From IMG/VR virus record IMGVR_UViG_3300032038_000017: a DNA stretch of 64,000 bases; one strand, given 5' to 3'. Below are positions 10,852-59,547 of this stretch, piece by piece (position 1 is the stretch's first letter; each line of letters starts with the position of its first letter). The stretch comes from an uncultured virus (IMG/VR IMGVR_UViG_3300032038_000017) (Duplodnaviria > Heunggongvirae > Uroviricota > Caudoviricetes). The translations under genes were made by a program, and so were the position numbers. The notes beneath the pieces were generated by a model that was not told the origin of the DNA, searched no databases, and saw nothing but the letters and a program-made list of their open reading frames with translations.

Positions 10852-10884
10852 AAAAAGCCAGACAATCAAACACTGTCTGGCTTT
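10852..10884 (-). terminator. hairpin/terminator after dnaK
   Basis: AAAGCCAGACA-N9-TGTCTGGCTTT. Confidence 0.7.
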
Positions 10885-10897
10885 GATTTCTTAGATT

Positions 10898-12793: not shown

Positions 12794-12828
12794 ATATTTC
12801 TTTTCTCCTAAACTCTTAATTCAAAAAT

Positions 12829-12860
12829 AAAACCCAGACAAATTTTCATCTGTCTGGGTA
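12829..12860 (-). terminator. hairpin between hsp20 and dnaK
   Basis: ACCCAGACA-N10-TGTCTGGGT followed by Us on the minus strand. Confidence 0.55.
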
Positions 12861-12957
12861 TAAAAATTGTTTATCTTATTTTTTCAAGAGAAACAATAAC
12901 CTCCAGACAAGCAGTGCTAATAAAGCACTGCTCCGAACCTCCAAATAACTTTTATGC

Positions 12958-33900: not shown

Positions 33901-36900
33901 GTATGGTGTCTTAGTAGGAACCCAAACACCACCATAAATAAATGTGGTATCGTCGGTGGAACTACAACTTATAAGAACGTTGTTTTTAGTGAAGTCATTA
34001 CCAATAATCTTAATGTTTGATTCGTCCTCACCAAGATACTTCATTATGTTTGTAAAAGTCTGTGAGTAGAATGATGCCTGTGTGATAGAAAGCAGATTTT
34101 TCTGAGTACCTACATTATGTGAATACTTTGTTACGGTATCATATTCACCAAGTGGGATTTCAAACAGAGGACTTTCTACGCTTGTATATTTCGTTGAGTT
34201 CTTCCTTTTAAGGGTATCGGATTGGTCTTGACCATAAACACTTACGTTTCTAAGTTCACCATAGTTATTGTAGAACTCTGAATTTTCATCAAAAGTTGAT
34301 GGGTCTTTTACATTATCGTATACCTGATTACCCCAAACGCTTGGATATGTAATGTCCTCTGGTGATTTGAACCAGTTACGACGACTCTTACCACCATTAC
34401 CAATCTGTGCGTAACATGGTGTTGTCCAGTCGTTATCTTTAAGGTCACGCTCTGGCCACATGTCTTGACCATCAAGGTTCAAAGTAATAAACTTCAAACG
34501 AATCTGTGGGTCTGTATAGTCCATATTACTAAGCAATGTATAATATCCAGTTGTGTCTGTTTCCAACATAACGTTAACGCCAACATTAACATTATCAGTC
34601 GCACGAGAAGACTGCATTAAGCTGTCCTCAATATAATCAAGCCATTCAACAGACATAAGAATAGGGTTAGTCTTAGATTTTACAGTTGGATAGTAAAGAA
34701 GCTTATTTAAGTTAAACTCCAAGAATAATTCATTATTGAACTTTATGTCTGACGGCATTAAATACTGATTTTTTGAGCCGTCTTTATCTTCTACCAAGAT
34801 TTCATAATCGTCCCAGTGAGTATCTTCGAGAACTTTTGTAAATGAGTTACTTACGCCGTTCTGATAGTTATGTATATTATAGAATGAAACATCTGGCAAG
34901 CTATCAAGGATAGCAGTTGATACCTTAGGATAATCGGCAGAAGGCCAAAGACCGTGTTCAAAAGGATTTGTAACTGAGTACAAACCGTTATTGTAAAGCC
35001 TTTCCTTGTATTCCAACAAATTATCTGTAATGTCGCTTGGAGATACGTTTGTCTTTACATAATAATTCAAAACAAACGTTCCAGACTGTTGAAGATTTAC
35101 GTTTACTGTAACTTCATTATCACCGATATGTGTAATAAATACATCATTGTCGTCAGAATCTATACTTGGTCCGGTAACAATGTCACCAATTGAAAGCGAC
35201 TTAAACATTTCACGTGCTACGTCGCTTTCAAAGAAGATTACGTTCTCAAAGCCTTCGTGACTTACGTCGATAACAGATTCAATTTGAATTGTCTCACGGC
35301 TTATAGAGCAAACTGTAATGTTTGTATCTTCTTCATTCTTTTTACCAAGAGTATACAACCTGAGCACTTCGTCCATAGAAGAAACTGCTTGCTCATAATT
35401 ATTTAAGATTTCCTTTTTATTGTTTGTAGCGTCGAGAATGTTTATATAATCGTGTTGTGTGTAATCGTCTGAGGTTGTTACGTAGCTAAAGTTAAGTGAC
35501 TGACCATTTGGTGATTTTAATGTTACAGTTGTCTCCAAGATTTCAGGGTTACTTGTTGGAACGTGTTGAAGTGTTCCCTCAATGTTGTAAATAGAACAAA
35601 CGTTCAAGTTTCCAAGAGAAATAGCACCTACTTCACCTGCTAAGTAGCCAGACTTCTTTGTGAGAGTTACATAGTCTATTTGGTTCTGGTAAGAGCTTTC
35701 ATTAAATACTTCAACAGTAGAAGTTGTACCGTCTTCATTTACAATAGTTTTTGTAACTGTATCTGGTACTGTTTTAATCCCCAAAGCTTTTGTGCCTTGA
35801 AGAACATATAGAACCTTACATCCAGGATAAACAGTAGATTCTTCTGTTTCGTATTCTTCACCGTCAACTTCATAAGTAATTTTGTTATAAAGATACTCGC
35901 TATTCTTGCGCCAGTTTTCGATGTTCTCTTCGTACTGTAACATTTTCTTCACGTATTCCAAGAATGAAGGGTAATCTTTATCAGATTCTTTTATAGCTTC
36001 TTTGGCTTTCAAGTAAAGTTCGTCGTCTTCTGAGTAATAGTTTCTTGCAACTGTTTCGTCAAAGCCATTTGCAACGTAAGCGTTCACATAATCTTGGTTT
36101 GTCCATTCGTGTGTATCACTTGAACCAGTTGCAGTAAGCTGTCTTACTGTTTCTGGATAGTCCTCGTAAAGGCTTTCCATCATGCTATCAGTCTTTTCAA
36201 ATGGAATAGCAGCTATGTCAAAATGCTCTGATGTCAGTATGTAACGACCGGCGGAAGGTGTTGTTTTTACAGTTAACTTACCTTCAAGAACAATAAGGTC
36301 ACCGTTCTCATTTTCAATTACGATACCGTTACTATCGTCAACTCTTTGAGTTTCTTCAATGTTAAATACTGGTGCATTTTCTGAGGCTTCTGTTTCGTCA
36401 ATTATAATATCCACATAACCCTTAGTAAAGTTGGTAACTTGAATTGTTGATTTAACAGTATTTGTATTACTGTCTGATAAGTCTTCAATTGCAAGGTATG
36501 TACCTTTTTCAATACAGTCCCAAACTATTTCTGTTTCAGGAACGTAGAATGAGCCTTTGTAATCCTGATTATCACCACTGTATGCTTCAATTCCGACTGA
36601 ATGAGGGTAGAACGAAATTGTATTACTTGGTGTAGTAAACAATGTATCTTCAACAAGAGGGTTATAGATTACTGGGAACTTTTTAACTATCCCCTTCATT
36701 ACATCTTTTGTGAAACCTTCACCAGTATATGTTGAGTAATAAATAGACAAGAAGTTGTACTGTTCAAAGTCGCTAGGCTTTTTATCTTCTTTAAGGAATG
36801 TATCATGAGCATTATTTTCAATAGCGTTGTATTCTTCTTGTGTCAATGTCTTACTCGACATTGGGGGATACGCACACAATTCCTTATAGATAATCTTGTT

Positions 36901-38256
36901 CTTACTTGTAGTAGTTACGCTATGAATTTCCTCTGTTATCTGTGAATCAACATCAATTCTACTACCCAGAGAGTTCGTTGCGTCCAAGCTTATTCTAAGC
37001 AAAGAAATGTCTTCGTTCTTGTTCTTTATGTAATTTGTAGCATGGTCATACTCATTTATAGAAATTTCGTTTGATATTTCAAAAGCAGAGAACATTGAAG
37101 ACGTATCAGAACAAGCTGGTGCTTCGAATACTGTATATTCATTAAATGGTAATGAGTAACCGAAAGCATAATTATTCATGTCCTTTGGCTTTGGGTATGA
37201 AGAATTGCTTCCGTCGTAATCTACAAGACGGAACTTTCTGTTGTAGTGTTTTGAGTAAGTGTCAATTACACGATTTCGTTGTCTAATGTAATCATTGTAT
37301 TTTGACGTATCGTAGCTATGACCAGTAGATTCATTCCACTCTTTTAATTGGTCTACATCTATCATCGGACTTACTGGTGAGTAGCTATTTTTATAATTTT
37401 CTATTTCTTCTTCGCTTGCACCAGAAGCTTCGAGCTCGTCTAAGTGCTCGTTATATTCAGAAGTCTTGATAACTGTATTACTATCTACAGTGCTCTTCAT
37501 GTAAGTTGTACCGACTTCTTTCAAATAGGTCTTTTTATCAACTGGCTTAATTGGCAGATATGTAGCAACTGGAAAAACTGTTGCATTTTGGAAGATATCG
37601 CTTGCCAACATCCTAAATCCAAGTTTAGAACCGTAAACACGCTTTCTGAAGCCTTCATTTTTAAGGTTTCTAATTTTAAGCATTGCCGCTTCAATTTCTT
37701 CGTCTGAAGCATTAATACCTAATGAGGATGCAACTGTATCAAAGAATTTTACATTTGGTTCATAATCAATTACTGCACCGGCATTGATTATCATGTCGTT
37801 AAACTCGTTTTCTGTTAGGAGTGCAGTCATGTCTGGATGGTCTGGATACATTGTACCTAGATAACGATATACTTCATGTAAGAGGAAATCGAACTCTGGC
37901 AATAATACGCCATATTCTTCGAGTCTATGATATGTTTCGTTTTTAGAGGCTTCTGGACCGTATTGAACGTCTTCTACAATTTTACCGTTTACCATTTTAT
38001 AGTAAACTTCGCCTGAATCAATACCGTCTTCGTGAGATTTTTCGTAATATTTTGTTCCGTCACTAGGGTTTGTTCTTTCTACGTCGATTTCATAAGGGAG
38101 ACCAAACTCTACGTCTGTAAATCCTAAAATCCACTTCCAAAGGTCTGTCTGTAACACTGTGTTCAGTCCACCAAACATGTCATAAGGTGGAATTTCATTT
38201 GTGAAATGGATTCTTTTTTCGATGTCAAACTCGGAGCGACTTGTGTATAAACTCAT
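24928..38256 (-). CDS. giant (4442 aa) baseplate/tail-fibre structural protein
   Basis: Directly downstream of the gp6-like wedge; N-terminal RKRVYGSKLGF resembles wedge gp7/P2 gpI; Asp-box YSTDKGSTF; C-terminal EVTEFGLFNKYHQLIAYAVFPPI resembles the tail-collar motif. Confidence 0.75.
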   Translation of the reverse strand: MSLYTSRSEFDIEKRIHFTNEIPPYDMFGGLNTVLQTDLWKWILGFTDVEFGLPYEIDVERTNPSDGTKYYEKSHEDGIDSGEVYYKMVNGKIVEDVQYGPEASKNETYHRLEEYGVLLPEFDFLLHEVYRYLGTMYPDHPDMTALLTENEFNDMIINAGAVIDYEPNVKFFDTVASSLGINASDEEIEAAMLKIRNLKNEGFRKRVYGSKLGFRMLASDIFQNATVFPVATYLPIKPVDKKTYLKEVGTTYMKSTVDSNTVIKTSEYNEHLDELEASGASEEEIENYKNSYSPVSPMIDVDQLKEWNESTGHSYDTSKYNDYIRQRNRVIDTYSKHYNRKFRLVDYDGSNSSYPKPKDMNNYAFGYSLPFNEYTVFEAPACSDTSSMFSAFEISNEISINEYDHATNYIKNKNEDISLLRISLDATNSLGSRIDVDSQITEEIHSVTTTSKNKIIYKELCAYPPMSSKTLTQEEYNAIENNAHDTFLKEDKKPSDFEQYNFLSIYYSTYTGEGFTKDVMKGIVKKFPVIYNPLVEDTLFTTPSNTISFYPHSVGIEAYSGDNQDYKGSFYVPETEIVWDCIEKGTYLAIEDLSDSNTNTVKSTIQVTNFTKGYVDIIIDETEASENAPVFNIEETQRVDDSNGIVIENENGDLIVLEGKLTVKTTPSAGRYILTSEHFDIAAIPFEKTDSMMESLYEDYPETVRQLTATGSSDTHEWTNQDYVNAYVANGFDETVARNYYSEDDELYLKAKEAIKESDKDYPSFLEYVKKMLQYEENIENWRKNSEYLYNKITYEVDGEEYETEESTVYPGCKVLYVLQGTKALGIKTVPDTVTKTIVNEDGTTSTVEVFNESSYQNQIDYVTLTKKSGYLAGEVGAISLGNLNVCSIYNIEGTLQHVPTSNPEILETTVTLKSPNGQSLNFSYVTTSDDYTQHDYINILDATNNKKEILNNYEQAVSSMDEVLRLYTLGKKNEEDTNITVCSISRETIQIESVIDVSHEGFENVIFFESDVAREMFKSLSIGDIVTGPSIDSDDNDVFITHIGDNEVTVNVNLQQSGTFVLNYYVKTNVSPSDITDNLLEYKERLYNNGLYSVTNPFEHGLWPSADYPKVSTAILDSLPDVSFYNIHNYQNGVSNSFTKVLEDTHWDDYEILVEDKDGSKNQYLMPSDIKFNNELFLEFNLNKLLYYPTVKSKTNPILMSVEWLDYIEDSLMQSSRATDNVNVGVNVMLETDTTGYYTLLSNMDYTDPQIRLKFITLNLDGQDMWPERDLKDNDWTTPCYAQIGNGGKSRRNWFKSPEDITYPSVWGNQVYDNVKDPSTFDENSEFYNNYGELRNVSVYGQDQSDTLKRKNSTKYTSVESPLFEIPLGEYDTVTKYSHNVGTQKNLLSITQASFYSQTFTNIMKYLGEDESNIKIIGNDFTKNNVLISCSSTDDTTFIYGGVWVPTKTPYYDETGKVTNMYELVYPESPLNLQYYVVEEDVNLSNIVVRVDGKVTGQTTRSFKRADVLFYYQENWYVKSFQYLGLVGDGFDYIKDVDDVYNRVNVTPDSNLSLSDTGTDNLKGENGATKKYTYTFKERLLQYYLRAANTKSPSYYSTVIRNTGFGDKVFYVDSTDLSSKINLPEALADFGNITPIHRSSILYWIYAGTFSPDKTKYNPDVYWKNTRDRDWLKEPDGIDYHDFFDVGDRVALINFNPAESESGTLSTITETDENEWYVFKINLDSILGISLPISKWQYVTDTEYSVILDEADFMEDSQKCGINSLLGKINSTINLPRSYITEGSYNFNFTIDPHFTSTGYLYNSDNMTINTDKEVKFCTTKGSIYYDTDNDVFYTFSNLLNEDGSWGTETHKVAIKFNEQKFFKNTLRLPCVYQVKNALVSGEQEIKQTPTLTGINGLEFPIDKLAVGDKLLEVRELDLRSLYATSLEPIFFSNYFNVNYPVKGVTENNELYLSYLPDNPTNSTEKYNFITNVMNLIPINTTFDELTSTYSTELATEQTTIDFGDEYENPQLSKISITKPLLSDSYDGKDEATFVNREFEYFKNNLVVRGKINTSNPKVIMTPNVDGSLFKNAIGKVNVGDTLVGAYALGPTGNEDKFKISISVDGQTVNGASIQYAYFANGQFRAVQKDGVVYFNNDIDVASVTSDIVCKKSIIYDNLENSRYNGEVVMVGWSKDLGWYVEINLKDKTSIICSLDITETIDQNGNNKSILSQAYMSNGKHVYVDYDNGSKHTLVGHTLGEYNKDYLTPRVLTVRYNGKTEGIQIMSKDTDISYDNSDNAIWTTKIYDGDNVDYTVKVTIEKAEEFIKAAITDNSSSETIVNTFDGNFKTSETYNVEKIDNEGNVIMYLLYETSSVSESNGSVIIPEKNTNGTVNYTTYTAKVYITEEASIWKEYSYGNEEPSGEKYTYEKSDEVLTDLDENAVVKGLGKQYTYVVGGDGDDTDIMVLYRDLALSSAKLTQSSSDKNVYELDSNYISEPYFADTSMIVTANGSKIPVASTLLSRSILKKDNSGKYTVYAKGRSLFVKSPTSIVEKTKTGNSGFSNGYSYNGFLTANSLWKHANAPIFNEKMFLTIRSTLVTDKQAVNDLVKMSMMRMLEILGHSVDLTANRNAGITVDGRAMSIDYDNTLLGNIRDVFKAISGYKGVYTSDSIEFDNVVTYENVVSAMDYAKANKSSVGSKWVKADGSNKVISNADGYPLLVQYSGTKWTFRCYGFKLVTETVTDGYDVVGASKQTFAELAPTAADISKYFTAFELIDDGPMVNYEHAFATFAYYYTYYLCGNAENTEIVSSSNISDIQFTDSNMLVTDTRGNINSIGLCYLHNRDDIENPEHWNASSFPRELTCYAVERDVLGTSNYKIGSQVISIPRPEVLTKQNTFHVECSYANEEIILFGGYIYSQTQIELIYDDFFRGDKTDSEYQTWKDNRSDDEKEVLTRLLEPSKFKNQGTPVLLYSTDKGSTFNMTTLKSTSGKSLEWEGSSEPSSTSYVSGVVFAENEYKVFVRNVGDEDNLEYYYYIEQDEDGLFDFATTTGSKEMDDYGDIALAHEFDVDSTTGTNDYDEPSDTSSSTSQLNSIPSGYYRMMFTEGANCFYILSTKAVRFGENVIVQSKTSGSITVTTALTKEGNSEFDVLLAFNVRENINNSLEYLNMERGEKYVGEMGNLRVPEVTMVDDVSMANRFYSYREILNPESLDTTSDSYDPYGYPAVIEDTKYALYEYTSKYNSDTGETIQTPVAMTNGNGDTVYLCDASGKYYIFVDKTSNRRILGTLEMRGSYAQELFQVAYQPLYASLKEAESNPSIRLGDDEFSKRLDLTGSVILGISYDNDVPYVKMSTNNSLLIKDISDYLFSSSDSKEFVQYLSSTTDLLGNSLEDTSKTDEEAAIARISNITYDTGNVEDGVPVYEQRFILKTSYITKEESTTTDESGQVTKETVNVEHKFWFDKLTQEYPLKKKRYLSALALVPYCFKAGITAYKNMGFDDISGTDYSLPNPITGVYLSNFGYGGSRSNTTFWENTVPWLVDPDAFTLGEYLTNSLDEPVYMVDASGKVLKSYDAEQEKKVGDTFSINASFLGTKDSKDLYVYSNANNTYKKKVMKLGSGGVSVYTPISDFKLGTTPFCINLWAYQSYKLVDIDKDANGNPNISFKYYGKTGKDTYRYVPCGGTTKLTVGNKSIYDFEYDENSKMLKFVKPDVLQQAFYVSPSNEIDIQSLLVTFYVNNQKYELKFGLTLDFEIDERFEEGVKVKSLVVTGNSNSSIYFDSYAIYQKQSSYELIKMNLVNAEESYKDYTNKSSLNLVISRVDEDGNPKVDSISVLDASNNSVLSSLYDSSIVGYDEGVNGGIVFNMQSAQGDLNNTVKLYVGGTVSVKLPIFMLGNVTTVCDYVVDKIEEGKVTEDSWVRKTYIDNICLDDLTSLYVSYNEETLEVLLSNTAKKGIATTIYNSTVIGKYNNTKPSLFSSELNKGYYLNMRDGSVLLNDTQKLSVEIVKYDTYNELSNNVYVNGFYGKVICRKPVYNTFKNLLDAKGFVINKGDDSILYTGTTNDTLTVGMTGEDNNISLSEMLDIAGFNDGEKHYINMRWLTQSTIRTEIANCNVDSEFTEISISEKSKFTPDRVWFNPDGYPVPPVVIGNNIFNSANNEQYSDTSYKNNNGYSVYRCNENGYLVGYTRSTDSSVISSYDNNNDGLPEAAEGYIKNDDGTIDSVAVEFVLDPLKNVLSDAQIPKAPIYETCQDWFKNEFYIKGKESNPYWQVLNVTSVFNKNHVWEQKLSVNEYVRSTQEMVMSKVATEDQYVVPKRTILVDVKDDICTIQSNADPVDKKAGSISFVLDKPASKYQTEKQFIKYGITAQNPFYGSSVWDGSNLSLSSYIDSTYTVCSTQNLADPRDKESEIQEVTEFGLFNKYHQLIAYAVFPPIEYRTSTQHISFTAYVKQGSCVDPSSL

Positions 38257-38326: not shown

Positions 38327-40936
38327 TTATTCTTTCGTCTTAATGACTCTTTCTACCTTGATGTTGTCATCGTCAACAAAGCAGATTGCGTTCATGTCTG
38401 TAGGCTCAATGCTTGACTGTTTTGGTCTTGCATATACGTTTAATGTAATGTAGTTATTTAACAGTTCAGAAAGAAGGGTCAAATAGTCAGAAGAGCCAAA
38501 TTCAAGTTCTGCCAAAACGGTAGTAAATCCCAAATATTTTATAGGGATTAAGAAATAGCCGTGTGCATAGTTAATAGAGTCTGGCTCGTCATAGTCTTCA
38601 TTAAACAGAATGTCAACGAAATCATAGTAATCGTTATTTTTCTTATAACAGTATGTTGCGTCAGAGTTCCTTAATGGACTACCGTCAAAAGCAATACGGT
38701 CATCATAATCAACGTCGGATACGTTACAAGATTTATTTTTTCCATTTTCGTCAACTTCATAAGGACGGTTTTCATATGGTGCAGTCGTAAAGCTCTTCGC
38801 TTTTCCCATAAATGTACTATTTGTAATTTCACTTATGTATGGGAACTGTGCGACACGAACAGAACGGTCGTTAAAGTTTTCAATTGTTTCGTCAAAGAAC
38901 TCAACCTTTATTCCCAAATTACTCTTACTATTTACCAGTTCGGCAGTAGAATCCTTACGGAAAGAGTTGTTATTTAGGTCGTTCGTAATACTGTCTTGCA
39001 AAGATACGGAGTCGTCTTCACGGTTATCAAACAAGAAGAACGTTCTGTTATTTGAATCTCCGGAAGTTGTATTTTTGAATATCAAGTCTACCTTTAATAA
39101 GTATGGACTAGAAGTAGAGCAGTTATGGAAACCTAGCTCGTATTTATTTGTTGCGTAGACTTTATCGAAGCTAAAAGGTATTGCAACTACGTCCAAAGAT
39201 TTTGACATTTTTTCGTTATTGATGTATTTCAACTTCATAACTTTTATGTCGTTCTTACCCATGTCTACGTTTGCCATTGCCTCGTTCATTACTTCAACAG
39301 AATCTGTGAAGCTAAACAATGAAGCCAAATAAGAAATCTTTGAATCGTAGAACGGGACCTTGAAATCAGTATTAAAGATAGAATATTCAGAAGAAACGGC
39401 AGCCTTAATACTGTCAATAATTTCTGATTCCGAAATACCACGGTCGTATGTATTGATAGTAATAGACGGTGCTATTTTAATAAAGTTTGGTTCTTTATAG
39501 CTTAAAGAGTCGTTTGGTCCTTTCAAATCACCGATAGACTTTGTAATAGTCTTAATAAAGTCTTCTGATTCTTCGTCAGTAACCATTTCTCCGTTTGCTT
39601 TTACGGCAGAAACAAACAAAGCGTTAGAAATTACAGAAACTTCATTTGCTACTTCTTCATCCAGGTCTTCATCAAGTGTAACGTCTACTTGTTTTGCATT
39701 AAATGAAGAAGACGGATAACATACTACCTTAGACAGAAGAACTGGTGAGTTATTCATTATCTGCTCTTTATAAGCAGCTTTTACTGCCGTAGTAGAAGAA
39801 CTAAGATATGCCAAGGGAGCTTTCGTCTTAAAGTCGTCTTCGTCTTCAATGTCCTTACCACCCATTAATGAAGTAACATTTGTACAACTTAAAAATGACG
39901 ATTCCATGTTAGTTCTTGGGTCTATCATCTTTGAGCCTGTTGGAAATGTCATTGTGTTTATCTGGAACTTTTGTTCTATGTTTCCGGCAGAACCTTTTGT
40001 TTCCAAATAGTGAACTATTATCTGTGAGTTTTTTACTGGAAGTTTGCCTGAAACGCCATCACCAAACTTTATAATAACGTTTGTACCATCGTCAGAAAGC
40101 TTTACTTCATAAACCTTGTCATATGGTCCTGCCATACGGATTTTCTGAATTTCTACCCATTTTTCTGAATCGTTTGCGTTAGGTGGGATTACTTCTACAT
40201 AAAAGTACTCTTTTGATATTGTATTGCTTGCATTTTCTACATTTGTAGCCGGAAATGAGAAAGACTGGAATCTTGAACCGTCTGCCGTTCCCAGTACTTG
40301 TTCACGTTGAACACCCTGGATAACTGGAACTTTTAGATACTTTAAACCGTCCCAACCACCAGCTTTATAGAAATCACTAAGTTTTGTTTCATTATTTTTT
40401 ATTGAACTCCAAGGGGTACTAAGAATACGAGTTTTTACTGTTTTTGTAGAAATAAATTGGGTTCCATTTGCAGCCGTGAAGATTGTTCCTTTTGGAACTT
40501 CATAAACACTAGGATTTGTCCAAGGAACTAATGCAGATTTTTTAATGTAGTTTGCATCCTCTTCTTTTTCTATATTATCATAATCAGAGTTTTCATCTAA
40601 GTCAAAAAATGTAGAACCATAGTTTGAAAGTCTTTCTACGCCTTCCTTGTCTGTATGTGAAACTATTACATAGCCTATTGCAGATTTAGCCCTTTGACGC
40701 TTTCTACCAATAAGGTTTCCCATAGTCTGCAATGACGACATGTTATGTGCTGTCTGCCATTTGTTTTCAAGAGAACGATACTCTACGTATCTTGCTATTT
40801 CCGATAAGCCTTCACAAAAAACGTCCATAAGGTTAGTGAATGTACCGTCATCAAGGATTGTAGCACTATCACTATTCATTACCATTCTATCTTTAAGTCT
40901 GGACTTTATTGCATCATATGTAAATCTTTTACCCAT
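38327..40936 (-). CDS. baseplate wedge protein (T4 gp6 / baseplate-J-like)
   Basis: EN.WQTA...SL, VPKGTIF, IKFGDGVSGKLP, YLETKGSAGN, GGKDIED..FK..AP. Confidence 0.88.
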   Translation of the reverse strand: MGKRFTYDAIKSRLKDRMVMNSDSATILDDGTFTNLMDVFCEGLSEIARYVEYRSLENKWQTAHNMSSLQTMGNLIGRKRQRAKSAIGYVIVSHTDKEGVERLSNYGSTFFDLDENSDYDNIEKEEDANYIKKSALVPWTNPSVYEVPKGTIFTAANGTQFISTKTVKTRILSTPWSSIKNNETKLSDFYKAGGWDGLKYLKVPVIQGVQREQVLGTADGSRFQSFSFPATNVENASNTISKEYFYVEVIPPNANDSEKWVEIQKIRMAGPYDKVYEVKLSDDGTNVIIKFGDGVSGKLPVKNSQIIVHYLETKGSAGNIEQKFQINTMTFPTGSKMIDPRTNMESSFLSCTNVTSLMGGKDIEDEDDFKTKAPLAYLSSSTTAVKAAYKEQIMNNSPVLLSKVVCYPSSSFNAKQVDVTLDEDLDEEVANEVSVISNALFVSAVKANGEMVTDEESEDFIKTITKSIGDLKGPNDSLSYKEPNFIKIAPSITINTYDRGISESEIIDSIKAAVSSEYSIFNTDFKVPFYDSKISYLASLFSFTDSVEVMNEAMANVDMGKNDIKVMKLKYINNEKMSKSLDVVAIPFSFDKVYATNKYELGFHNCSTSSPYLLKVDLIFKNTTSGDSNNRTFFLFDNREDDSVSLQDSITNDLNNNSFRKDSTAELVNSKSNLGIKVEFFDETIENFNDRSVRVAQFPYISEITNSTFMGKAKSFTTAPYENRPYEVDENGKNKSCNVSDVDYDDRIAFDGSPLRNSDATYCYKKNNDYYDFVDILFNEDYDEPDSINYAHGYFLIPIKYLGFTTVLAELEFGSSDYLTLLSELLNNYITLNVYARPKQSSIEPTDMNAICFVDDDNIKVERVIKTKE

Positions 40937-46772: not shown

Positions 46773-47399
46773 TTAGTTTGCTGTGAAACCACCAGTTCCA
46801 AGACCGTTGATTGCACCACCTGCATAGAATGGATAATCACAATCCCCGAATACGAAGTCAACGCCGTATGTCAAATATCCACCATCACTGCCGTCGAACT
46901 TTGGCTGTCCTACTTTTGCTACCCATACGTCATAGAATGTCCATTCTGCGTTGTCCGTAGAATTTGCAATTGCGTATGTAGAAGCAGTATCAATATAAGT
47001 GTTTACAGATGTTGCTGCGTATGTACCAGTCAATGCCTGGACACGTACCTTACCAGTAGAGTTTGCCCAGTTTGCAACACCACCGTTTACTGGGTCTGCA
47101 ACTGTCTGATGCCAAGTGATGAACTGTTGATACAAAGAATAAGAAGCGTCCAAACGGAACTCCAAGCTGAACTTGCGTTCAAACTCGATGGAAGTCTTAG
47201 GAACGTTTACTGTTGTTCCGTGATATTTTCGTTCATCCATACCAACATTAGCTTCTTTAACTTCAAAGTTCTGTGCACGTGTAGAAAGAACTACTTCGTC
47301 GTTAGGATTCCAAGGAAATGTTACCCAAACGTCAAACATGTTCTTTTGTGCGTCTGCACCTGAGGCTAACATTGCTTGAACTGCTGAATTATTTGCCAT
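46773..47399 (-). CDS. major tail tube protein (T4 gp19-like)
   Basis: 208 aa; NMFDV, FSLEFRLD..Y.LY..F..W, WTFYDVW...VDFVF; strong SD, own promoter motif and terminator. Confidence 0.75.
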   Translation of the reverse strand: MANNSAVQAMLASGADAQKNMFDVWVTFPWNPNDEVVLSTRAQNFEVKEANVGMDERKYHGTTVNVPKTSIEFERKFSLEFRLDASYSLYQQFITWHQTVADPVNGGVANWANSTGKVRVQALTGTYAATSVNTYIDTASTYAIANSTDNAEWTFYDVWVAKVGQPKFDGSDGGYLTYGVDFVFGDCDYPFYAGGAINGLGTGGFTAN

Positions 47400-52583: not shown

Positions 52584-52931
52584 ATGTATATGGAATTGAG
52601 AATAAAAAAGAATAACCAAGACGTTTACGTCATAGAGCTTTCCGGTGAGCTTGACTTATACAATTCTTATAAAGTCAAGGAGCTCTTTTTAAAAATGGTT
52701 GAAAGAGGAATAAAGTACATTATATTTGATTTGAGTCGGACAGATTACATAGACTCGACTGGCATTGGTGTTTTCATTTACTGTTTTGACGTAGCTAAAA
52801 AGCAATACGTCAAAACTTGTCTATGTAATGTATTCGGAACAGTATTAAAAGTTATACAGCTTACCAAATTAACCGGCTATTTCACTATGACTAAAACAAT
52901 AGAAGAAGGTATAGACATAGTAAAAAGCTAA
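52584..52931 (+). CDS. STAS-domain anti-sigma factor antagonist (RsbV/SpoIIAA-like, spirochete type)
   Basis: LSGELDLYNS, FDLSRTDYIDSTGIG, VLKVIQLTKLTGYF; the start may be ATG 52590. Confidence 0.92.
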   Translation: MYMELRIKKNNQDVYVIELSGELDLYNSYKVKELFLKMVERGIKYIIFDLSRTDYIDSTGIGVFIYCFDVAKKQYVKTCLCNVFGTVLKVIQLTKLTGYFTMTKTIEEGIDIVKS

Positions 52932-55198
52932 ATTAATGCAAATCCAGATTTCTCCAGGAAACTATTAGTTTTCTGTTTCAAAGTTTCATAATCCCTTGCC
53001 TTATTTGTTTCTGGATTCCAAACAACATAAGGTAAATATTCATTAGAATACTTGTTTAACAACGTAATAGCCGCCGTAATAGAGTCCAAAGCATCCTTTG
53101 CATTTACACCACGCATATCAGTATTCCAGTTTCCGTCGCCTTGTGTTACGATTTCGCCACTCATATGGTCAATCTTTGGCTTACCACTTCCCTTACGCTT
53201 AACAACTTGAATTGACTTCATGTTATTCTTAACATAAATGTTCTTACCACAATGGAAACGACCGTGTTGAACATAATCAATAAAGTTGTAGTAGTGTTCG
53301 TTCTCTCTATCGACTGATATGTTTTCAACGTGAATACCCTTTCGAAGCAAATACTGTTTAGAAGCTTCTGACTGGAAGGTATCGTATGAAACATGCATTA
53401 TTTTAAGGTTTCCAAGTGTAACTAAGTCAGAAATAAAACACTTGATAGCGTCCAAGTTAATAATACCACCCGCCGGAATAATAACAATGGTAAAGTCTGT
53501 TACGTATACCTTATACGCTTCACCAGTTTCTGGGTCTATCTTATTAGGGTCACGTTCAACGTGGACCATAGAAATTCCGGTAACGTCCCCAGAGAATGAC
53601 TGGTCAACTGCCAAAGCCCTAGGAATGCCAGGTTCGTAGTAGAAATAGTATTTATCAAGAACACGGTTAAAGAATGTGTCCTTAATTTGGTTCCATACCA
53701 AGTGTTCTGGTTCTTCCTCTGCAGGTGCCGTAATTTCGCCCATAAGATTCTTCAAGTTGTTATTAAAACAATTTTCGATAGTTTCTGGGTTATTGAAGAT
53801 ACGGTCTGCCGTTCCAGACGGAATACCACACCAGTCTTTCATAAACTCGATAGGGGTAGACTTAGCTTTATCGTACATGCTAATACCACCACCCTCACGT
53901 GGACACCATACGATGTCTATAGGGTCAAATCTTTCAAGGTCTTGCTCGCTTTCAACTGGTCTAGGTAAAAGACCATTACCACCCTTAAACATTGGGAAAC
54001 AAGTTTTGAAATCACGCTTTATGTTACCATACTGGTCGTAACAACCTTGGAAATCTTGCTTAAAGAACTTCCAACGTGCGCCAGTAAAGAGCAAGTTTTT
54101 AGGGTCTTTTGGTGCGTCTTCCCAAATCCATTTATCAATAACTGATTCCATAGTGTTTGGTGAAGAGTCCAAAATAAATCCAGAAATACGGTTTCCTTTC
54201 ATACGTGAGTCGATACGGTCACGAAGCTTAGTAAAGAACTCATAAATCTGTTCGTCAGTCCAACCACCTTGCTCACGCCAGAAGCCCAACTCAGTTGCAG
54301 AACCCATAATAATGTTCTGACCAATAATGTCACCATTAGAAGATACAATGTTAAAGTTTAAGTTGTTTGAAATAGAAATACAACTCGTCGGTGCAGCCGT
54401 TGTCCAGTAGAGGTTTGGAATACCAGTGGTATTGTTGAACTCCTTATTAGCCTTAACCATGTCGTCTATTGTACGACACTGTTGCCAGAAATCTGCCTGA
54501 CGTAATACGTTCAAAAGTGGACCCATCAAAAGTTCGTAAGCTTTCTTCTGTGAGAATCCACCAAATACGATAGTAAACTGTGTTGAAGGGGCATATCCGT
54601 AATACTTGTATGGTGCCCACATAAATGCAAACTGTAAAGCGATATACATGTTTGCCAAAACGGTAAGGGTAGATTTACCAGTACCAATACAAGAAGAAAG
54701 AATTAAGTTACGATACGGTGAAAGAGGGTTAAAGAATCGCAAGAACGTTTCTTTAATCCAGGGGTGTAATGTATTTGCCTGGTCACCAATGTATTTTGGG
54801 GTAAGAAACTCTTCTGGTGTAGGGGGTTTATCACGAAAGTTTAATCGCCAACCTTGTGTAAGAAGCTGGGTTTTCATCTCGGTTGTCATGTCATTATTTT
54901 TTGCCAACCATTCGAGTGCTTTCTTTACCTTGTCGAAACCGAGTTGCTTAAATTCTGGTCTGTTCATCGCTGACTTATCGCCAGCAAGGATGTCTTGAAA
55001 TATGTATTTTAGCTCACCAAGTTTATCTGGCGTAATAATCTGATACTTTGAATTATCAACGGCTATCTTAGCACCCAATTCTGCTGTGCCGTCTTTTTTC
55101 ATTTCCCATGCAGTTTTTTCAGGGTCGTCTACATTTATTTCTATATTATGTGTTGCGTTTTCTTTAACTGTTTCAGTTTTTAGTTCTTCATTTTCCAT
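52928..55198 (-). CDS. terL: terminase large subunit
   Basis: Walker A SSCIGTGKST, coupling motif LDSSP, RNase-H-like nuclease LAVDQS..GD, SYDTFQS, KDALDS. Confidence 0.85.
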   Translation of the reverse strand: MENEELKTETVKENATHNIEINVDDPEKTAWEMKKDGTAELGAKIAVDNSKYQIITPDKLGELKYIFQDILAGDKSAMNRPEFKQLGFDKVKKALEWLAKNNDMTTEMKTQLLTQGWRLNFRDKPPTPEEFLTPKYIGDQANTLHPWIKETFLRFFNPLSPYRNLILSSCIGTGKSTLTVLANMYIALQFAFMWAPYKYYGYAPSTQFTIVFGGFSQKKAYELLMGPLLNVLRQADFWQQCRTIDDMVKANKEFNNTTGIPNLYWTTAAPTSCISISNNLNFNIVSSNGDIIGQNIIMGSATELGFWREQGGWTDEQIYEFFTKLRDRIDSRMKGNRISGFILDSSPNTMESVIDKWIWEDAPKDPKNLLFTGARWKFFKQDFQGCYDQYGNIKRDFKTCFPMFKGGNGLLPRPVESEQDLERFDPIDIVWCPREGGGISMYDKAKSTPIEFMKDWCGIPSGTADRIFNNPETIENCFNNNLKNLMGEITAPAEEEPEHLVWNQIKDTFFNRVLDKYYFYYEPGIPRALAVDQSFSGDVTGISMVHVERDPNKIDPETGEAYKVYVTDFTIVIIPAGGIINLDAIKCFISDLVTLGNLKIMHVSYDTFQSEASKQYLLRKGIHVENISVDRENEHYYNFIDYVQHGRFHCGKNIYVKNNMKSIQVVKRKGSGKPKIDHMSGEIVTQGDGNWNTDMRGVNAKDALDSITAAITLLNKYSNEYLPYVVWNPETNKARDYETLKQKTNSFLEKSGFALI

Positions 55199-55238
55199 AT
55201 GTATATTTAGGAAAAGTAACTAAAACTGAAACTGTATA

Positions 55239-56084
55239 TTATCTGTTATTATGTTGAACTTCTTTTAGCATTTTCTGCCATTCTGTTTCCGTAACGCCAT
55301 AAACTTTACACAGGTCTTCGTTTGTCCAATCTGATTTATATCCAACTTTACCAGTCCTTGGATTAGTAACAGACGCAACGTATGGTGTAAATTGCGGGTG
55401 CACTGGAGGGTCAATGGTTACTTTCATAACACAGTACCCTACAAAATCTAATTGCAAGAAATTATACAAGTTTTCTATCTCGTCTAACTCGCTTTCTACA
55501 ATTCTAATTTCACCAAGTTCTCCTTGCGTTACGTGAACGTCTCCATCCATAATTTGACAAGGGTTTTTACCGTTGAACTGGTCATTAATAAATATACCGT
55601 ATAGTTTTGGGTTCTTCAAGATACAAGTCAAGAAACGACCGTTCTTTCGTTCTGGGTGAACACCAGAGAAGTTCTTTATTACGAAATAAGGCTTTTTATG
55701 GTCGGACTTTGTATATTTTGTAAAAGGAACACCATATAAATTACTTCCAAGTATTTTTTCTATTATAGGGTCGTGTAAAGATTTACAGTCAAAGCCACCT
55801 TTATGCGTTAACTTATAAATACCTAAATCACAAGCTGCACCTATGTCAAAATGGTCATTAGCTTCAGAAGCCTTTATTACAAGTAATGTATCTATCTGGT
55901 TTCTAACATTTTCAAACTTTTTCCAGTCTGTCCCTTGTTTATATTCTGCAAGCGGGTCTTGTATCCATCTAACTGGTGATAGGTCTATACAGTTTTCCAA
56001 ATAATTATTTATAGCAACGCTCATAATAGAAATATGCAAGTTACTACTATAAGGGGGATTCATTAAAATGTTATTGAACTTCAT
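55239..56084 (-). CDS. N6-adenine DNA methyltransferase C-terminal half (paralog of 49062-49883)
   Basis: Starts MKFNNILMNPPY; LH, PVRWIQ, VHP, WTNEDLCKVYGVT..E; no motif I. Confidence 0.75.
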   Translation of the reverse strand: MKFNNILMNPPYSSNLHISIMSVAINNYLENCIDLSPVRWIQDPLAEYKQGTDWKKFENVRNQIDTLLVIKASEANDHFDIGAACDLGIYKLTHKGGFDCKSLHDPIIEKILGSNLYGVPFTKYTKSDHKKPYFVIKNFSGVHPERKNGRFLTCILKNPKLYGIFINDQFNGKNPCQIMDGDVHVTQGELGEIRIVESELDEIENLYNFLQLDFVGYCVMKVTIDPPVHPQFTPYVASVTNPRTGKVGYKSDWTNEDLCKVYGVTETEWQKMLKEVQHNNR

Positions 56085-56385
56085 TGGTTCTCCAAGAATA
56101 CTTCATACCATTATCGTCAAACTCTAATTTACCCATAGGGTCATAATGGCTTGCGTTCCAGTTATCTATTGTAAATCTGTAGACATGTCCTACATAGCCG
56201 TCTATCTTTTCCCAAGGTAGAATTCTATTCTTGTTCGCTTTAAGCCAGTCAACTACAATAGAGAACTTTTTATAGTAATTATTCTTATCTGCTTCTGACA
56301 AATCTTGCCAACGCTTTACATTTTTATAGTCATCCATACTACTTATCATATTAAACAAAAAGGCACAGTTCCGTGCCTGTGCCAA
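56071..56385 (-). CDS. hypothetical protein
   Basis: ORF overlapping the methyltransferase start; start uncertain. Confidence 0.5.
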   Translation of the reverse strand: MAQARNCAFLFNMISSMDDYKNVKRWQDLSEADKNNYYKKFSIVVDWLKANKNRILPWEKIDGYVGHVYRFTIDNWNASHYDPMGKLEFDDNGMKYSWRTNEVQ

Positions 56386-56468
56386 GTGTATGATATTTAA
56401 TTTTGGTTGTGAATTTCGTCTTTGTTTGGATGTTTTCTAAAAACTACGCACGGACGTAGAATAAAGTC

Positions 56469-57311
56469 TTATTTTGCTTCTGATTGAGTGCCTTCTGTTG
56501 CCATCAAAGACTTGTTATAATCTGTCTGGCGAAGGTAGATTTCAATGTCTCGACGTGTTCTGTTTTCAAGTTCTTTCTTTGCCTGAACACCAAATACTTC
56601 GTCAGCTTCAAGACCACGCTCGTAAGCTTCGTCTGTAACTGCCTTATCGTAAATCATAGTAATCTTTTTAATACCTACGATAGAAGTTGGACTATACATC
56701 CAATCACCCGGTGCACGGTGTGTAATTACTTCAATTTTTGTAAGACGAATGTCAGTCATTTTAAGACCTGCAACCGGAATCTGTGCAGTTGAACGGTTCT
56801 TTACGTCGTCAATGTATTCTGCAAAATTAATGTGTGCAGTAAACTCAATCATAGACTCAATAGTAGAAGTTGCGTCAGAAGCCTTGAACTTACGCTTATG
56901 TTCTACACCATTCTGCAACCAGAAGATTTCTACTTCGTCATATCCACGGTTAAGTGTCAATACAATGTCTGCACTTTTAACAGAGGCAGCGTTCTTAATG
57001 TATCCAGCACCAGTATTAGCTTCGTTAAAAGAAGGCTCAATAAATGCGATACCATAACGACTGTCAGTATACTGAGGTGCACAATCTGTTCTGATACAAA
57101 GACCATACTTTTCTGAAAGTACTGGGTTATAAAGATTACGTCCTGGCTCATAAGTTCCAGAAACACCAATAGCCCTTGCACCTGCTACCCAGTCGTAGCC
57201 AGTTCCAAGTACATCTGCTTTTGCAGTAGAATCAAAAAGGGTTGCTTCGTCTGCGAAAACCAATCCGATAGCCATAATAGCTACGACCAACAAGCTAAAA
57301 AGCTTTTTCAT
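56469..57311 (-). CDS. flaA: periplasmic flagellar filament sheath protein FlaA homolog (divergent)
   Basis: Signal peptide ending VFA/DEATLFD; GYIKNAASVKS, YIDDVKNR, MIYDKAV and LMATEG match spirochete FlaA blocks as I recall them. Confidence 0.8.
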   Translation of the reverse strand: MKKLFSLLVVAIMAIGLVFADEATLFDSTAKADVLGTGYDWVAGARAIGVSGTYEPGRNLYNPVLSEKYGLCIRTDCAPQYTDSRYGIAFIEPSFNEANTGAGYIKNAASVKSADIVLTLNRGYDEVEIFWLQNGVEHKRKFKASDATSTIESMIEFTAHINFAEYIDDVKNRSTAQIPVAGLKMTDIRLTKIEVITHRAPGDWMYSPTSIVGIKKITMIYDKAVTDEAYERGLEADEVFGVQAKKELENRTRRDIEIYLRQTDYNKSLMATEGTQSEAK

Positions 57312-57379
57312 CTATTCTTTTCTCCTTGAATTAGATTTTGTGTAATTTCTGGTGATTCACTTTTAGCATAAAGCTAGAA

Positions 57380-57691
57380 TTACGCTACGTGCCAATGCTT
57401 AGTTTTATTAAAGCTAAGAATGTCAAAGTCTAAGCTTTCGTTTGCGTCTTCAACAGGCTCAAATGTTCCCAACAAACGAATGTTTGCACTGTCTTTCAAA
57501 TCATTTATAAACTTGTTGTCATAAACGTAATGATTATCTTCACAGTAGTTACTTGCTACTTCTCTTGTAAGTGCAAGAAGTGCCTGATTTTCGTTCAAGT
57601 CTTTATTAACTGCTGCAACCAAACTTACAAACACGCCGTGTTCATTCTGGAATGTAACCTTGTACAAATTCTGCTTACTCATTTTAATCAC
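57380..57691 (-). CDS. hypothetical protein between flaB and flaA
   Basis: 103-aa ORF, GAGG SD, TTAATAT motif at 57731-57737. Confidence 0.7.
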   Translation of the reverse strand: MIKMSKQNLYKVTFQNEHGVFVSLVAAVNKDLNENQALLALTREVASNYCEDNHYVYDNKFINDLKDSANIRLLGTFEPVEDANESLDFDILSFNKTKHWHVA

Positions 57692-57744
57692 CTCGTAATA
57701 TAAAGATTTTCCCCTCTTAATCTACTTTTTATATTAACGTTAAA

Positions 57745-57768
57745 GGTGGGCTTATTATAGCCCACCCC
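57745..57768 (-). terminator. terminator after flaB
   Basis: GGTGGGCT-TATTAT-AGCCCACC, followed by UUU on the minus strand. Confidence 0.65.
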
Positions 57769-57817
57769 TTATAAACTTTTTATCATTCAGCCACGAACCC
57801 ACCAGTAGATGGCGTTT

Positions 57818-58669
57818 CTATTTTAGCAAAGCCAATACGTTCTGTGACTGGCTGTTTGCCTGAGCAAGCATTGCAGTAGCGGCAGACTGAAGAATCTGGT
57901 CTTTTGTATACTCAACAACCTCTTTTGCCATGTCTGTATCACGGATACGGCTTTCTGCTGCCTGGGTATTTTCTGCTGCAACATTGATACCTTTCTGTGC
58001 CATCTCCATACGGTTCTGATAAGCACCAAGGTCTGCTCTCTGTTTATTTACATTTTTTAATGCTTCGTCGATTGTTGAAAGTGTTTTGCTTGCATCGTCT
58101 GGACTGTTTACAGAAATTATGTTTGACTCGTCACCCTGTTGTCCTTTAAGACCAAGAGCAGTTGCAGTCATTGTTCCAATGTAAGCACGAATGTTCTGGT
58201 CTACGTTAGCACCAATCTGGAACTGCATAACTGTATCTGACTCACGAGCGAAACGTCCAGTTAAAAGGTTCATACCGTTAAACTGTGCAGAACTTGAAAT
58301 ACGGTCTACTTCTGCTACCAACTGCGATACCTCTACGGCAATCTGCATACGGTCTTCATCCGAATAAACGCCGTTTGAAGCCTGAACTGCCAGCTCACGA
58401 ATACGCTGGAGAACGTCTGTTGTTTCTGCCAAGTATCCTTCTGAAACCTGAACGAAAGAAACTGCGTCACCAATGTTGCGTGAAGCCTGATTAAGACCAC
58501 GAATCTGTGAACGCATTTTTTCTGATACTGCAAGACCAGAAGCGTCGTTACCTGCCTTGTTAATTCTTTCTCCAGAAGAAAGTCTTTCCATAGCAGACTG
58601 CAAGCTTGCGGCATTGAGCCCTTCTTGACGACTAGCAAACAAGCTAGACATGTTGTGATTAATTACCAT
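57818..58669 (-). CDS. flaB: flagellin, spirochete periplasmic filament core protein FlaB
   Basis: [72 protein letters not shown]; 283 aa with no D2/D3 domains. Confidence 0.97.
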
Positions 58670-58757
58670 AATTATACTCCTTTCTGGTTATGGTTTACCA
58701 GATTTCTATTAGACTAGACTATCCGTGTCTAGTCTAATCCAACATAAATGATATTAA
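58670..58757 (-). promoter_or_regulatory. flaB promoter/leader with CsrA-type GGA hairpin
   Basis: TTAATAT at 58751-58757; 12-bp stem AUUAGACUAGAC/GUCUAGUCUAAU with loop ACGGAUA (58708-58738); AAGGAG SD. Confidence 0.65.
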
Positions 58758-58778
58758 GATAATCTACTAAAAAGTAAA

Positions 58779-59156
58779 CTATTCTTCCCACTCAAAGTCT
58801 TCCTTTGCGTCAGACGCACGGGAAGCTGCCGTTGCTACACCTGGACGTGAACGGTCACTTGCAGGAGCAACCGTTGAAGCAGAAACAACCTTGCCTTTTT
58901 TGAGTTTCTGTTTGCTTACAACGTCCTTTACTTTTTTATTTGAAACAGGTCCATAAATGAACTTGTTGTCACTTAGTTTGACATAATCCTTAAAACCAGT
59001 AATGGTAATAATGGATTCGTCGTCGAGTTCCTGTCCTACGCTTATTGCACCGTTTGTTGAACGTGCCTTGCCTTGAATCTGAACTACTGTATATGTTTCG
59101 GCAGAAAGCAATAAAGACATTAGGAAAATCGCTCCAAATAGCAATATTTTTTTCAT
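58779..59156 (-). CDS. exported protein with FecR-like beta-strand N-terminal domain
   Basis: Signal peptide; YTVVQIQGKA...VGQELD...ITG..YVKL; C-terminal TAASRA; GGGGAGG SD. Confidence 0.6.
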   Translation of the reverse strand: MKKILLFGAIFLMSLLLSAETYTVVQIQGKARSTNGAISVGQELDDESIITITGFKDYVKLSDNKFIYGPVSNKKVKDVVSKQKLKKGKVVSASTVAPASDRSRPGVATAASRASDAKEDFEWEE

Positions 59157-59171
59157 ATAAACCTCCCCAGT

Positions 59172-59348
59172 TTATACCAATAAATCAATCAAGTGCTGAG
59201 ACTTCTCGTCTTCACTTGAACCCTCTTTCTTTTCTTCTAAAACTTTTTGATTAATTTCTTCGACTTTTTGTATTAAAGCTTTATTAGCTTTACCCTCCAG
59301 TCTGGACACCAAAGACGGTGGTTTAATGATAACATTAGGCACCTTCAT
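59172..59348 (-). CDS. small 58-aa protein (not in the ORF track)
   Basis: ATG at 59348 with AGGAG SD, open to TAA at 59172, directly upstream of the 58779-59156 gene. Confidence 0.45.
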   Translation of the reverse strand: MKVPNVIIKPPSLVSRLEGKANKALIQKVEEINQKVLEEKKEGSSEDEKSQHLIDLLV

Positions 59349-59547
59349 ACACGCAAACTCCTTTTTGCTAGTTATAAAGACTTACACAAATGCAAGCCAA
59401 CCTCAATGTTGACTCTTATGTAATTAGTTATTTTAACCCTGTCCACCCTATTAACATTATATTAATTTTTGTATTTATCGGCGAACTACACTAATTATTT
59501 ATAAGATTAAACTATAAACTAATTTTGTACAAAATAGGAGTAATAAA

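Follow-up and report, generated by a model that had tools for sequence, protein, structure and literature searches.

A huge phage of gut spirochetes carries a FlaB core flagellin and a diverged FlaA-family protein in one gene module

Spirochete flagella are periplasmic and double as a cytoskeleton. Here we present a computational analysis of a 64,000-nucleotide stretch of DNA from an uncultured virus of the Caudoviricetes (IMG/VR record IMGVR_UViG_3300032038_000017; the whole stretch is referred to as the window), in which two flagellar filament genes are encoded among phage genes on the minus strand. The first, flaB, specifies a spirochete core flagellin, and the second a protein of 280 amino acids (aa) related to the FlaA sheath proteins. 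In the direction of transcription, the module appears to consist of a sigma-28-type promoter, two small open reading frames (ORFs), one of them with a predicted signal peptide, a putative CsrA-type leader, flaB, a further small ORF, the FlaA-family gene and a terminator (Table 1).

Results

The core flagellin

The flaB product scores above the cut-offs of both flagellin domains in Pfam (Flagellin_N, E 4.9e-41, 140.5 bits, cut-off 26.6; Flagellin_C, E 2.3e-25, 89.1 bits, cut-off 23). In a comparison to all PDB sequences, the top four matches are Treponema filament core flagellins, namely 9pil_Fd and 10pp_A at E values of about 1e-114 (1.7e-114 for 10pp_A), 10pl_Ba at 6.6e-110 and 9pim_CJ, extending to about 1e-108, followed by chains of Leptospira-type and further spirochete flagellins. 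The alignment with 10pp_A joins residues 1-282 of the 283 to residues 1-284 of that chain, with no outer D2/D3 domains, an end-to-end agreement that bears out the intact spirochete-type flagellin proposed in an earlier sequence-only reading of this DNA. 10PP represents the Treponema denticola FlaB3 filament and 10PL the sheathed FlaB1/FlaA filament (PMC13439194). We classify the phage protein as FlaB3-type, since it differs from FlaB3 by single-residue gaps only, whereas the D1 loop of FlaB1 is four residues longer.

Subunit contacts in the T. denticola FlaB filament are made by Q88, R91, E92, D106, R223 and E225, and S115, S126 and T137 are glycosylated (PMC13439194). The phage protein retains Q88, R91, E92, D106, R220 and E222, the last two being equivalent to R223 and E225, together with S115, S126 and T137, and all of these are invariant or present in at least 20 of 22 aligned sequences. 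As polymerization contacts, glycosylation sites and the full D0 termini are conserved, the sequence argues that FlaB is maintained as an export- and assembly-competent flagellin. When 50,697 GenBank phage records were searched with FlaB using tblastn, 12 were matched, with 45.5% identity at best, and none of the matched proteins is spirochete-type. The FlaB tree comprises 34 rows, in which sequences from a phage context are mixed with rows of unassigned context, and as it lacks a bacterial anchor it cannot tell if the phage genes form a single clade. The FlaB of one related locus, L011, is identical to a protein (P0201) whose contig measures 397,621 bp.

The FlaA-like protein

The assignment of the 280-aa protein runs through its relatives. 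A word-indexed search returned 187 of them, and the best 120 of the 187, which are 73-100% identical, include none with a precomputed Pfam domain. Searched exhaustively with HMMER, 1.84 billion cluster representatives yielded 22 proteins at E <= 0.001. For 11 distant relatives (24-34% identity and E 5e-26 to 8e-6 in this search; 22-34% identity in the alignment termed A2), FlaA (PF04620) is the best Pfam family in every case, nine exceeding the 25-bit gathering score of that family and two (P0143 and P0144) staying below it. The A2 profile, built from 22 sequences, in turn matches the T. denticola FlaA chains of the PDB (9pim_BR, E 2.2e-20; 10pl_Ab, E 5.9e-18), with the next match at E 0.54. 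In this match, profile positions 98-272 correspond to FlaA residues 171-336, including a common YDKAV strand and a C-terminal helix that ends in LMATE.

Structural prediction is in agreement with this relationship. An AlphaFold2 model based on 22 diverse sequences adopts a beta-sandwich with C-terminal helices (predicted local distance difference test score, pLDDT, 84.3; predicted template-modelling score, pTM, 0.81). Foldseek places the FlaA1 sheath protein (9cyn) on top (E 4.8e-5), and among 48,161 chains ranked by VIA-align, FlaA1 (9cyn_A) comes first (Z 10.5, root-mean-square deviation 3.7 Å over 169 residues), with generic carbohydrate-binding module (CBM) sandwiches within about 1 Z of it. 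A first model, derived from 17 close sequences, reached a pLDDT of 61.6 and was replaced by the 22-sequence model.

At the N-terminus, a lysine-rich MKK start, a hydrophobic run and VFA followed by DEA were recognized by eye, not by a predictor; this arrangement parallels the N-terminus of FlaA, and A20-D21-E22-A23 are invariant in 17 sequences, over which the family shows a mean column identity of 75%. No relatives of the family were detected in 185,579 species-representative genomes, in a scan that rested on few peptide patterns, and a tblastn search of the GenBank phages with the FlaA-like protein yielded no record.

Because homology is established through the relatives and the family profile, although the protein by itself leaves Pfam FlaA unmatched, we conclude that the 280-aa protein genuinely belongs to the FlaA family, within which it is shortened and strongly divergent. 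The FlaA homology claimed in the sequence-only reading thus stands at the level of the family and not at that of the single protein, its strong divergence is confirmed, and the claimed signal peptide keeps the status of a feature recognized by eye. The export signal, in conjunction with the homology to FlaA, argues that the protein would act in the periplasm on filaments. A complex prediction for FlaB with the mature FlaA-like protein (score 0.00, mark 0.32) speaks neither for nor against binding.

Phage context and contiguity

The DNA of the window derives from a huge tailed phage whose hosts are spirochetes of the ruminant gut. A 756-aa ORF with a Walker-A-like motif (GTGKST) is the large terminase gene terL and marks the DNA as phage: by tblastn it aligns to annotated large terminases in 77 GenBank phage records (22-24% identity, E to 3e-18, 73-80% of the length). 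A gap of 1,271 bases separates its end from the FlaA-like gene, matching the 1.3 kb initially noted. Genes for a tail tube protein and a baseplate protein follow downstream in the orientation of terL, and further phage-typical genes encode a deoxycytidylate (dCMP) deaminase, a RecU-like resolvase and a SAK-type HAD domain. The G+C content is about 36% along the whole window. A curated NCBIfam cut-off is passed by two of the 58 window ORFs only, a DnaK and a STAS protein, and a capsid and a portal were not identified. As already noted, no further flagellar gene is present, neither in a Pfam scan of 47 window ORFs nor in the NCBIfam scan of 58. The most likely host is Treponema, a deduction from the type of flagellin and from the matching sequencing runs, which stem from bovine and sheep guts.

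The joins within this region are bridged by independent assemblies, as a DNA contig of run X1 (3,485 bases) covers 53473-56957, a contig of run X2, from another study, covers 56056-58066 (2,011 bases), and the IMG/VR contig L001 extends from the 3' end of flaB to terL with 100% protein identity. Assembly is thus contiguous from terL to flaB, as opposed to a chimera with host DNA. The window or parts of it were recovered in 20 runs from 16 studies. These are gut metagenomes throughout, of bovine, sheep or unspecified origin. Along one 4.9 kb, L001 and the window differ unevenly (synonymous divergence, dS, 0.114 in the terL part and 0.005 in the FlaA-like gene), which may reflect recombination between strains.

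Recurrence and selection

Further loci were collected through an IMG/VR scan with FlaB (18 loci) and a metagenome-contig scan with the FlaA-like alignment (10 loci). When the A2 hidden Markov model was applied to all ORFs, a FlaA-family ORF was detected within about 4 kb of flaB in the window, L003, L005-L007, L011, L014-L019 and L023, and in L014 and L015 the protein encoded next to flaB exceeds the Pfam FlaA cut-off of 25 bits by itself (35.4 and 40.4 bits). According to Pfam, 133 ORFs that surround the pair in L005, L006, L007, L014 and L015 comprise phage-type genes, including a split family-A DNA polymerase, a 5'-3' exonuclease, QueC, PARG and an SLT lysozyme, many ORFans, and no other flagellar gene. 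Both genes also recur in three related huge-phage records, G001 (385,934 bp, with a completeness rating of 100%), G002 (300,878 bp, bounded by direct terminal repeats) and G003 (239,841 bp), each of which contains one flagellin and one FlaA-family gene.

FlaB is 71-87% identical between phages whose terL genes, as in these three records and the window, are only 44-49% identical. Pairwise Nei-Gojobori comparisons to the window gave for flaB a non-synonymous divergence (dN) of 0.12-0.38 and a dS of 1.5-3.0 (ratio 0.06-0.17), and for the FlaA-like gene of the closer group, L002-L007, a dN of 0.14-0.19 and a dS of 1.6-1.9 (ratio 0.08-0.10), these ratios being rough since dS is saturated; towards the distant group, dN/dS of the FlaA-like gene is 0.29-0.45. 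The ratio is below 1 in every pair with an estimable dS, and far below 1 for flaB and the closer FlaA-like genes. Hence flaB and the FlaA-like gene are under purifying selection, and neither relaxed selection nor absence from related phages, either of which would have spoken against the sequence-only reading, was observed.

Control elements and small ORFs of the module

The motif scan employed the sigma-28 (FliA) consensus TAAA-N15-GCCGATAA. Allowing up to one mismatch, four sites match in 64 kb compared to 0.49 expected, and the exact one is located in the divergent intergenic region that heads the module. The T. denticola promoter PflaB2 has the -10 box CCGATAA (PMC9481697), and related boxes (G/TCCGATAA) are found directly before flaB in L011, L013, L020 and L021. 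The pattern TAAA-N14-16-NCCGATA occurs in six of 24 rows with a flaB start, i.e. these four, L032 (which is the record of L020) and the window, here at -832.

The flaB leader folds into a 15-bp hairpin (58707-58744) displaying ACACGGAU in its loop, and a second GGA is part of the Shine-Dalgarno sequence AAAGGAG. The fold has an energy of -31.7 kcal/mol (z -3.34), equalled or bettered in 0 of 200 shuffles. A GGA-loop hairpin precedes flaB in at least 10 rows, a count made by eye on the leaders and not a statistical result. The layout suggests a CsrA-type control element to which CsrA is predicted to bind. CsrA, FliW and FliS are each encoded in none of G001-G003, one of which carries a sigma-70-family gene. 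Because promoter and leader are of host type and phage genes for the chaperone and regulators are absent, we argue that the module plugs into the late flagellar programme of the host.

Homologues of the 125-aa protein are encoded upstream of flaB in L003 (1474-1860, 45% identity) and L023 (8275-8679, 30%), and its acidic-aromatic tail is conserved, being EDFEWEE in the window and EDFDWDE in L003. The protein has no match in Pfam, PHROGs, NCBIfam or the PDB, where no solved FlaAP chain was hit either; it could be a further exported, filament-associated protein of the periplasm. The 103-aa ORF travels with flaB, with homologues directly 3' of it in L001, L004, L007, L009, L020 and L021; it lacks family and PDB matches, and an Atlas search returned weak viral clusters only. 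As the 125- and 103-aa proteins and a 104-aa protein are without a PDB sequence match, an assignment as FlaAP1/FlaAP2-like is unsupported. The G+C-rich hairpin 3' of the flaB stop, not flagged in the terminator scan, is possibly an attenuating terminator.

Contigs of RNA libraries from two samples of one study cover 56380-57865 and 57934-59392, and RNA-library contigs of X14 and X16 stop at 56380 and 56396, close to the terminator-like hairpin downstream of the FlaA-like gene. For expression of the module, the lack of which would have spoken against the sequence-only reading, this is no more than a hint. The stretch 55128-56227, devoid of RNA-contig cover in X14, is not evidence of silence.

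Other genes in the window

Additional genes were noted outside the module. A single ORF of 4,442 aa without Pfam or PHROG match lies directly downstream of the baseplate gene, and may encode a giant tail fibre or host-contact protein. The window also carries a chaperone set, and a DnaJ homologue is found close to the flagellar pair in L007 as well. A STAS-domain anti-sigma-factor antagonist adjoins terL on the opposite strand and could touch sigma-factor partner switching of the host; a tie to the sigma-28 module would be pure speculation. An HD hydrolase domain protein of the SpoT/RelA type, a diverged MetK-like S-adenosylmethionine synthetase and the dCMP deaminase are candidates for host-takeover or nucleotide-metabolism genes. 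Finally, two paralogous proteins of about 275-281 aa share 21% identity (tblastn through L001). One is encoded in the interval from terL to the FlaA-like gene, its paralogue matches phrog_11371 at its N-terminus, and a homologue is located upstream of flaB in L024.

Table 1 Features of the flagellar module and of its surroundings in the window.
Feature	Position	Strand	Basis or remark
Exact sigma-28 (FliA) promoter consensus, pointing into the module	59475-59501	-	Sole zero-mismatch match in 64 kb
58-aa ORF, first gene 3' of the promoter	59172-59348	-	ORF call
125-aa protein, signal-peptide-like N-terminus, acidic C-terminus	58779-59156	-	Translation; conserved upstream of flaB in some relatives
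flaB mRNA leader, CsrA-type two-site layout	58670-58778	-	RNA fold and motif
flaB, FlaB3-type spirochete core flagellin, 283 aa, D0 and D1 only	57818-58669	-	Pfam N and C domains; full-length PDB match
G+C-rich hairpin 3' of flaB stop, GGGGTGGGC...GCCCACC then TTTA	57741-57770	-	Read from sequence
Small cytoplasmic ORF, 103 aa as listed; likely start ATG 57682, giving 100 aa	57380-57691	-	Travels with flaB
Divergent FlaA-family sheath protein, 280 aa: signal-peptide-like N-terminus, beta-sandwich, C-terminal helices	56469-57311	-	Family profile, relatives, model
Terminator-like hairpin and T run, directly 3' of the FlaA-like gene	56444-56459	-	Terminator scan
Paralogue of about 275-281 aa	55239-56084	-	
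terL, terminase large subunit, 756 aa	52928-55198	-	tblastn to annotated terL of GenBank phages
STAS-domain anti-sigma-factor antagonist	52584-52931	+	TIGR00377, 79.9 bits, over cut-off
Paralogue of about 275-281 aa	49062-49883	-	phrog_11371 (N-terminus)
Tail tube protein	46773-47399	-	phrog_45, E 2.4e-12
Baseplate wedge / Baseplate_J-like protein	38327-40936	-	phrog_6, E 4.3e-16; Pfam Baseplate_J, E 1.8e-4; TIGR02243, E 1.5e-9
4,442-aa ORF	24928-38256	-	
dCMP deaminase	23121-23582	-	
SpoT/RelA-type HD hydrolase domain protein	21947-22504	-	
Diverged MetK-like synthetase	17449-18702	+	
Chaperone set: full-length DnaK, DnaJ, weak Hsp20-like protein	9745-13617	-	DnaK: NF001413, 958 bits

Discussion

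Based on the gene identities, the phage context, contiguity, recurrence, purifying selection and control motifs, all of which are observed, the proposal that a phage supplies the genes for both filament layers is supported. We propose, with a probability of roughly 0.58, that the FlaB and FlaA-like products are incorporated into the periplasmic flagella of the host, remodelling or maintaining them. This is favoured because FlaB appears assembly-competent, its partner is likely periplasmic and the module seems tied to the flagellar programme of the host.

For the steps from transcription to assembly, and for the benefit to the phage, we infer the following sequence of events. The filament module would have been acquired from a host lineage and would be transcribed by the host RNA polymerase carrying sigma-28, with translation of flaB gated through the CsrA/FliW checkpoint of the host. 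FlaB would then be exported via host FliS and the flagellar type III apparatus, and attached to the distal ends of periplasmic filaments already in place, while the FlaA-like protein would pass the inner membrane by Sec and coat the filament. In this manner, a replaced or altered core and sheath would preserve or modify how the infected cell swims, and perhaps its shape, over the course of a long infection.

Several observations weigh against this proposal. Neither protein has been seen in a filament by experiment or in a proteome. The FlaA-like protein alone (P0002) finds no match in Pfam to E 10, PHROGs, NCBIfam or the PDB; its N-terminal ~97 residues stay unaligned to FlaA in the A2 match, T. 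denticola FlaA is the longer protein by about 70 residues, and FlaA K280 and D293 are not kept, as judged by eye on the profile alignment. In T. denticola, N147 of FlaB1 contacts FlaA, and FlaB3 forms an unsheathed filament (PMC13439194). The loop with N147 is shortened in the window FlaB, as in FlaB3, and the N-terminal third of FlaA, which holds S86 (PMC13439194), has no counterpart in the FlaA-like protein; if the phage proteins bind each other, the interface consequently differs from that of T. denticola. The sigma-28 site is located 832 bases upstream of flaB and not directly before it, and the RNA-library contigs may contain DNA and so can neither prove transcription nor rank the genes.

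The linkage of the pair is also incomplete. A FlaA-family ORF is absent from the covered flank in 10 of 17 IMG/VR flaB loci besides L001 (L012, L013, L020, L021, L022 and L024-L028), and a distance of about 52 kb separates them in G002. A shift of the reading frame by one base near codon 44 interrupts flaB of G001 (which is L019, ~10000-10845), with both halves otherwise intact and 84% identical to the window flaB apart from the frameshift, so that either a recent defect or a sequencing error is at hand.

Alternatively, the module may serve as a regulatory decoy, with the leader RNA soaking up CsrA, or cytoplasmic FlaB sequestering FliW/FliS, thereby shifting the CsrA regulon or stopping host flagellin synthesis, and with entry into the filament being incidental. 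The conservation of the CsrA-type leader in many loci is compatible with such a role, as is the lack of CsrA, FliW and FliS genes in the related phages, which leaves the host partners as the only ones available. However, strong purifying selection acts on the whole of FlaB, including D0/D1 contacts needed for polymerization alone, and a co-carried, Sec-exported sheath protein would be superfluous for a decoy, which we therefore consider unlikely.

Another explanation is that a FlaB3-type core combined with a short, aberrant sheath is dominant-negative, stalling or stiffening the flagella and immobilizing the cell, e.g. to hold it in a host-rich niche or to alter the envelope against superinfection. 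The strong divergence and truncation of the FlaA-like protein relative to host-type FlaA point in this direction, and so does the loss of the FlaA-contacting FlaB1 loop. Yet FlaB has kept the polymerization residues and glycosylation sites that working flagellins have, and the conservation of the FlaA-like family fits a precise structural role equally well, leaving such poisoning with a slim chance.

That both proteins build or decorate the phage particle is very improbable. The pair adjoins terL upstream in the orientation of the structural module, and CBM-like beta-sandwich folds are also found in phage tail proteins (8qpg, Z 8.3; 5w6h, Z 7.1), but virions assemble in the cytoplasm, whereas the FlaA-like and 125-aa proteins carry export signals as far as their N-termini can be read; moreover, flaB lies far from terL in G001-G003, and the module bears host flagellar control motifs. 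A chimera with host DNA, or a recently captured pair devoid of function, is already largely refuted: the frameshift in one relative and the location of the closest FlaB proteins (P0156 and P0201) on contigs of up to 592 kb of unassigned nature would fit, but contigs of other runs bridge the joins, a genome bounded by direct terminal repeats (G002) has both genes, and the proteins are still 74-87% identical despite saturated synonymous sites.

Returning to incorporation into host filaments, a more specific version can be formulated tentatively, although we hold it to be less probable than not in its entirety. A clade of huge spirochete phages would encode a matched FlaB3-type core and a shortened FlaA of its own, switched on by the late flagellar checkpoint of the host, and thereby extend the periplasmic flagella with a distal segment specified by the phage, altering stiffness or curvature, swimming and cell shape to the advantage of the phage.

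The closest known filament is that of T. denticola, with the reference proteins FlaB1 (TDE1477, 10PL), FlaB3 (TDE1475, 10PP) and the major sheath protein FlaA (TDE1712, 10PL/9PIM) (PMC13439194). The phage flagellin resembles FlaB3 in its full-length alignment, the short D1 loop and the contact and glycosylation residues, the FlaA-like family shares with FlaA the region of the YDKAV core and the LMATE helix end, and the predicted export routes are in principle common to both systems. In contrast to T. denticola, the genes are phage-encoded and the sheath-family protein is shortened, with its N-terminal third unaligned. Furthermore, flaB and the FlaA-like gene are adjacent in the window, whereas flaA of T. 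denticola sits as an orphan in a different operon (PMC9481697), and T. denticola flaB3 is driven by sigma-70, whereas the window module has a sigma-28 consensus, as flaB2 does.

A CsrA-FliW-flagellin partner switch and two-site CsrA leaders operate on B. subtilis hag, C. jejuni flaA and Borrelia flaB. The phage leader is similar in that one GGA is placed in a hairpin loop and a second in the Shine-Dalgarno sequence before a flagellin gene. Unlike those leaders, it belongs to a phage gene, and related phages bring no CsrA or FliW.

A phage-borne flagellin isoform that changes the host filament and host properties has been described for the Enterobacter prophage FRphi, which alters the flagella of its host in this way (PMC13418256). 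FRphi is a temperate siphovirus of a host with external flagella, silences host fliC through an RNA-guided repressor (TldR) and has no sheath gene. The phages described in this work, on the other hand, are huge and have contractile-tail genes, and they concern periplasmic flagella, carry no repressor that we found and encode a sheath-family protein along with the flagellin.

Conclusions

Until now, flagellar remodelling by a phage flagellin has been demonstrated for temperate Enterobacter phages and external flagella only. Our literature search found no description of a phage carrying a spirochete flagellin or FlaA, and a term search of jumbo-phage surveys returned no mention of flagella, Treponema, spirochetes or motility. 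The present data extend the idea of remodelling to huge phages of gut spirochetes, in which a sheath-family protein travels with the flagellin, so that two layers of the organelle are virus-encoded; as the module is found in bovine and sheep gut runs of 16 studies, it is not rare. If the products enter host filaments, they would constitute a natural experiment on how a FlaA variant fits a FlaB core, a live question following the filament structures of 2026. If core and sheath indeed form a matched pair, a virus would reprogram host locomotion by swapping structural parts of the organelle, not by regulation. The virus thus probably remakes or sustains the flagella with which the infected cell swims, with incorporation as the conjectured step, and motility organelles would then be added to the list of host functions kept up or rewired by large phages.

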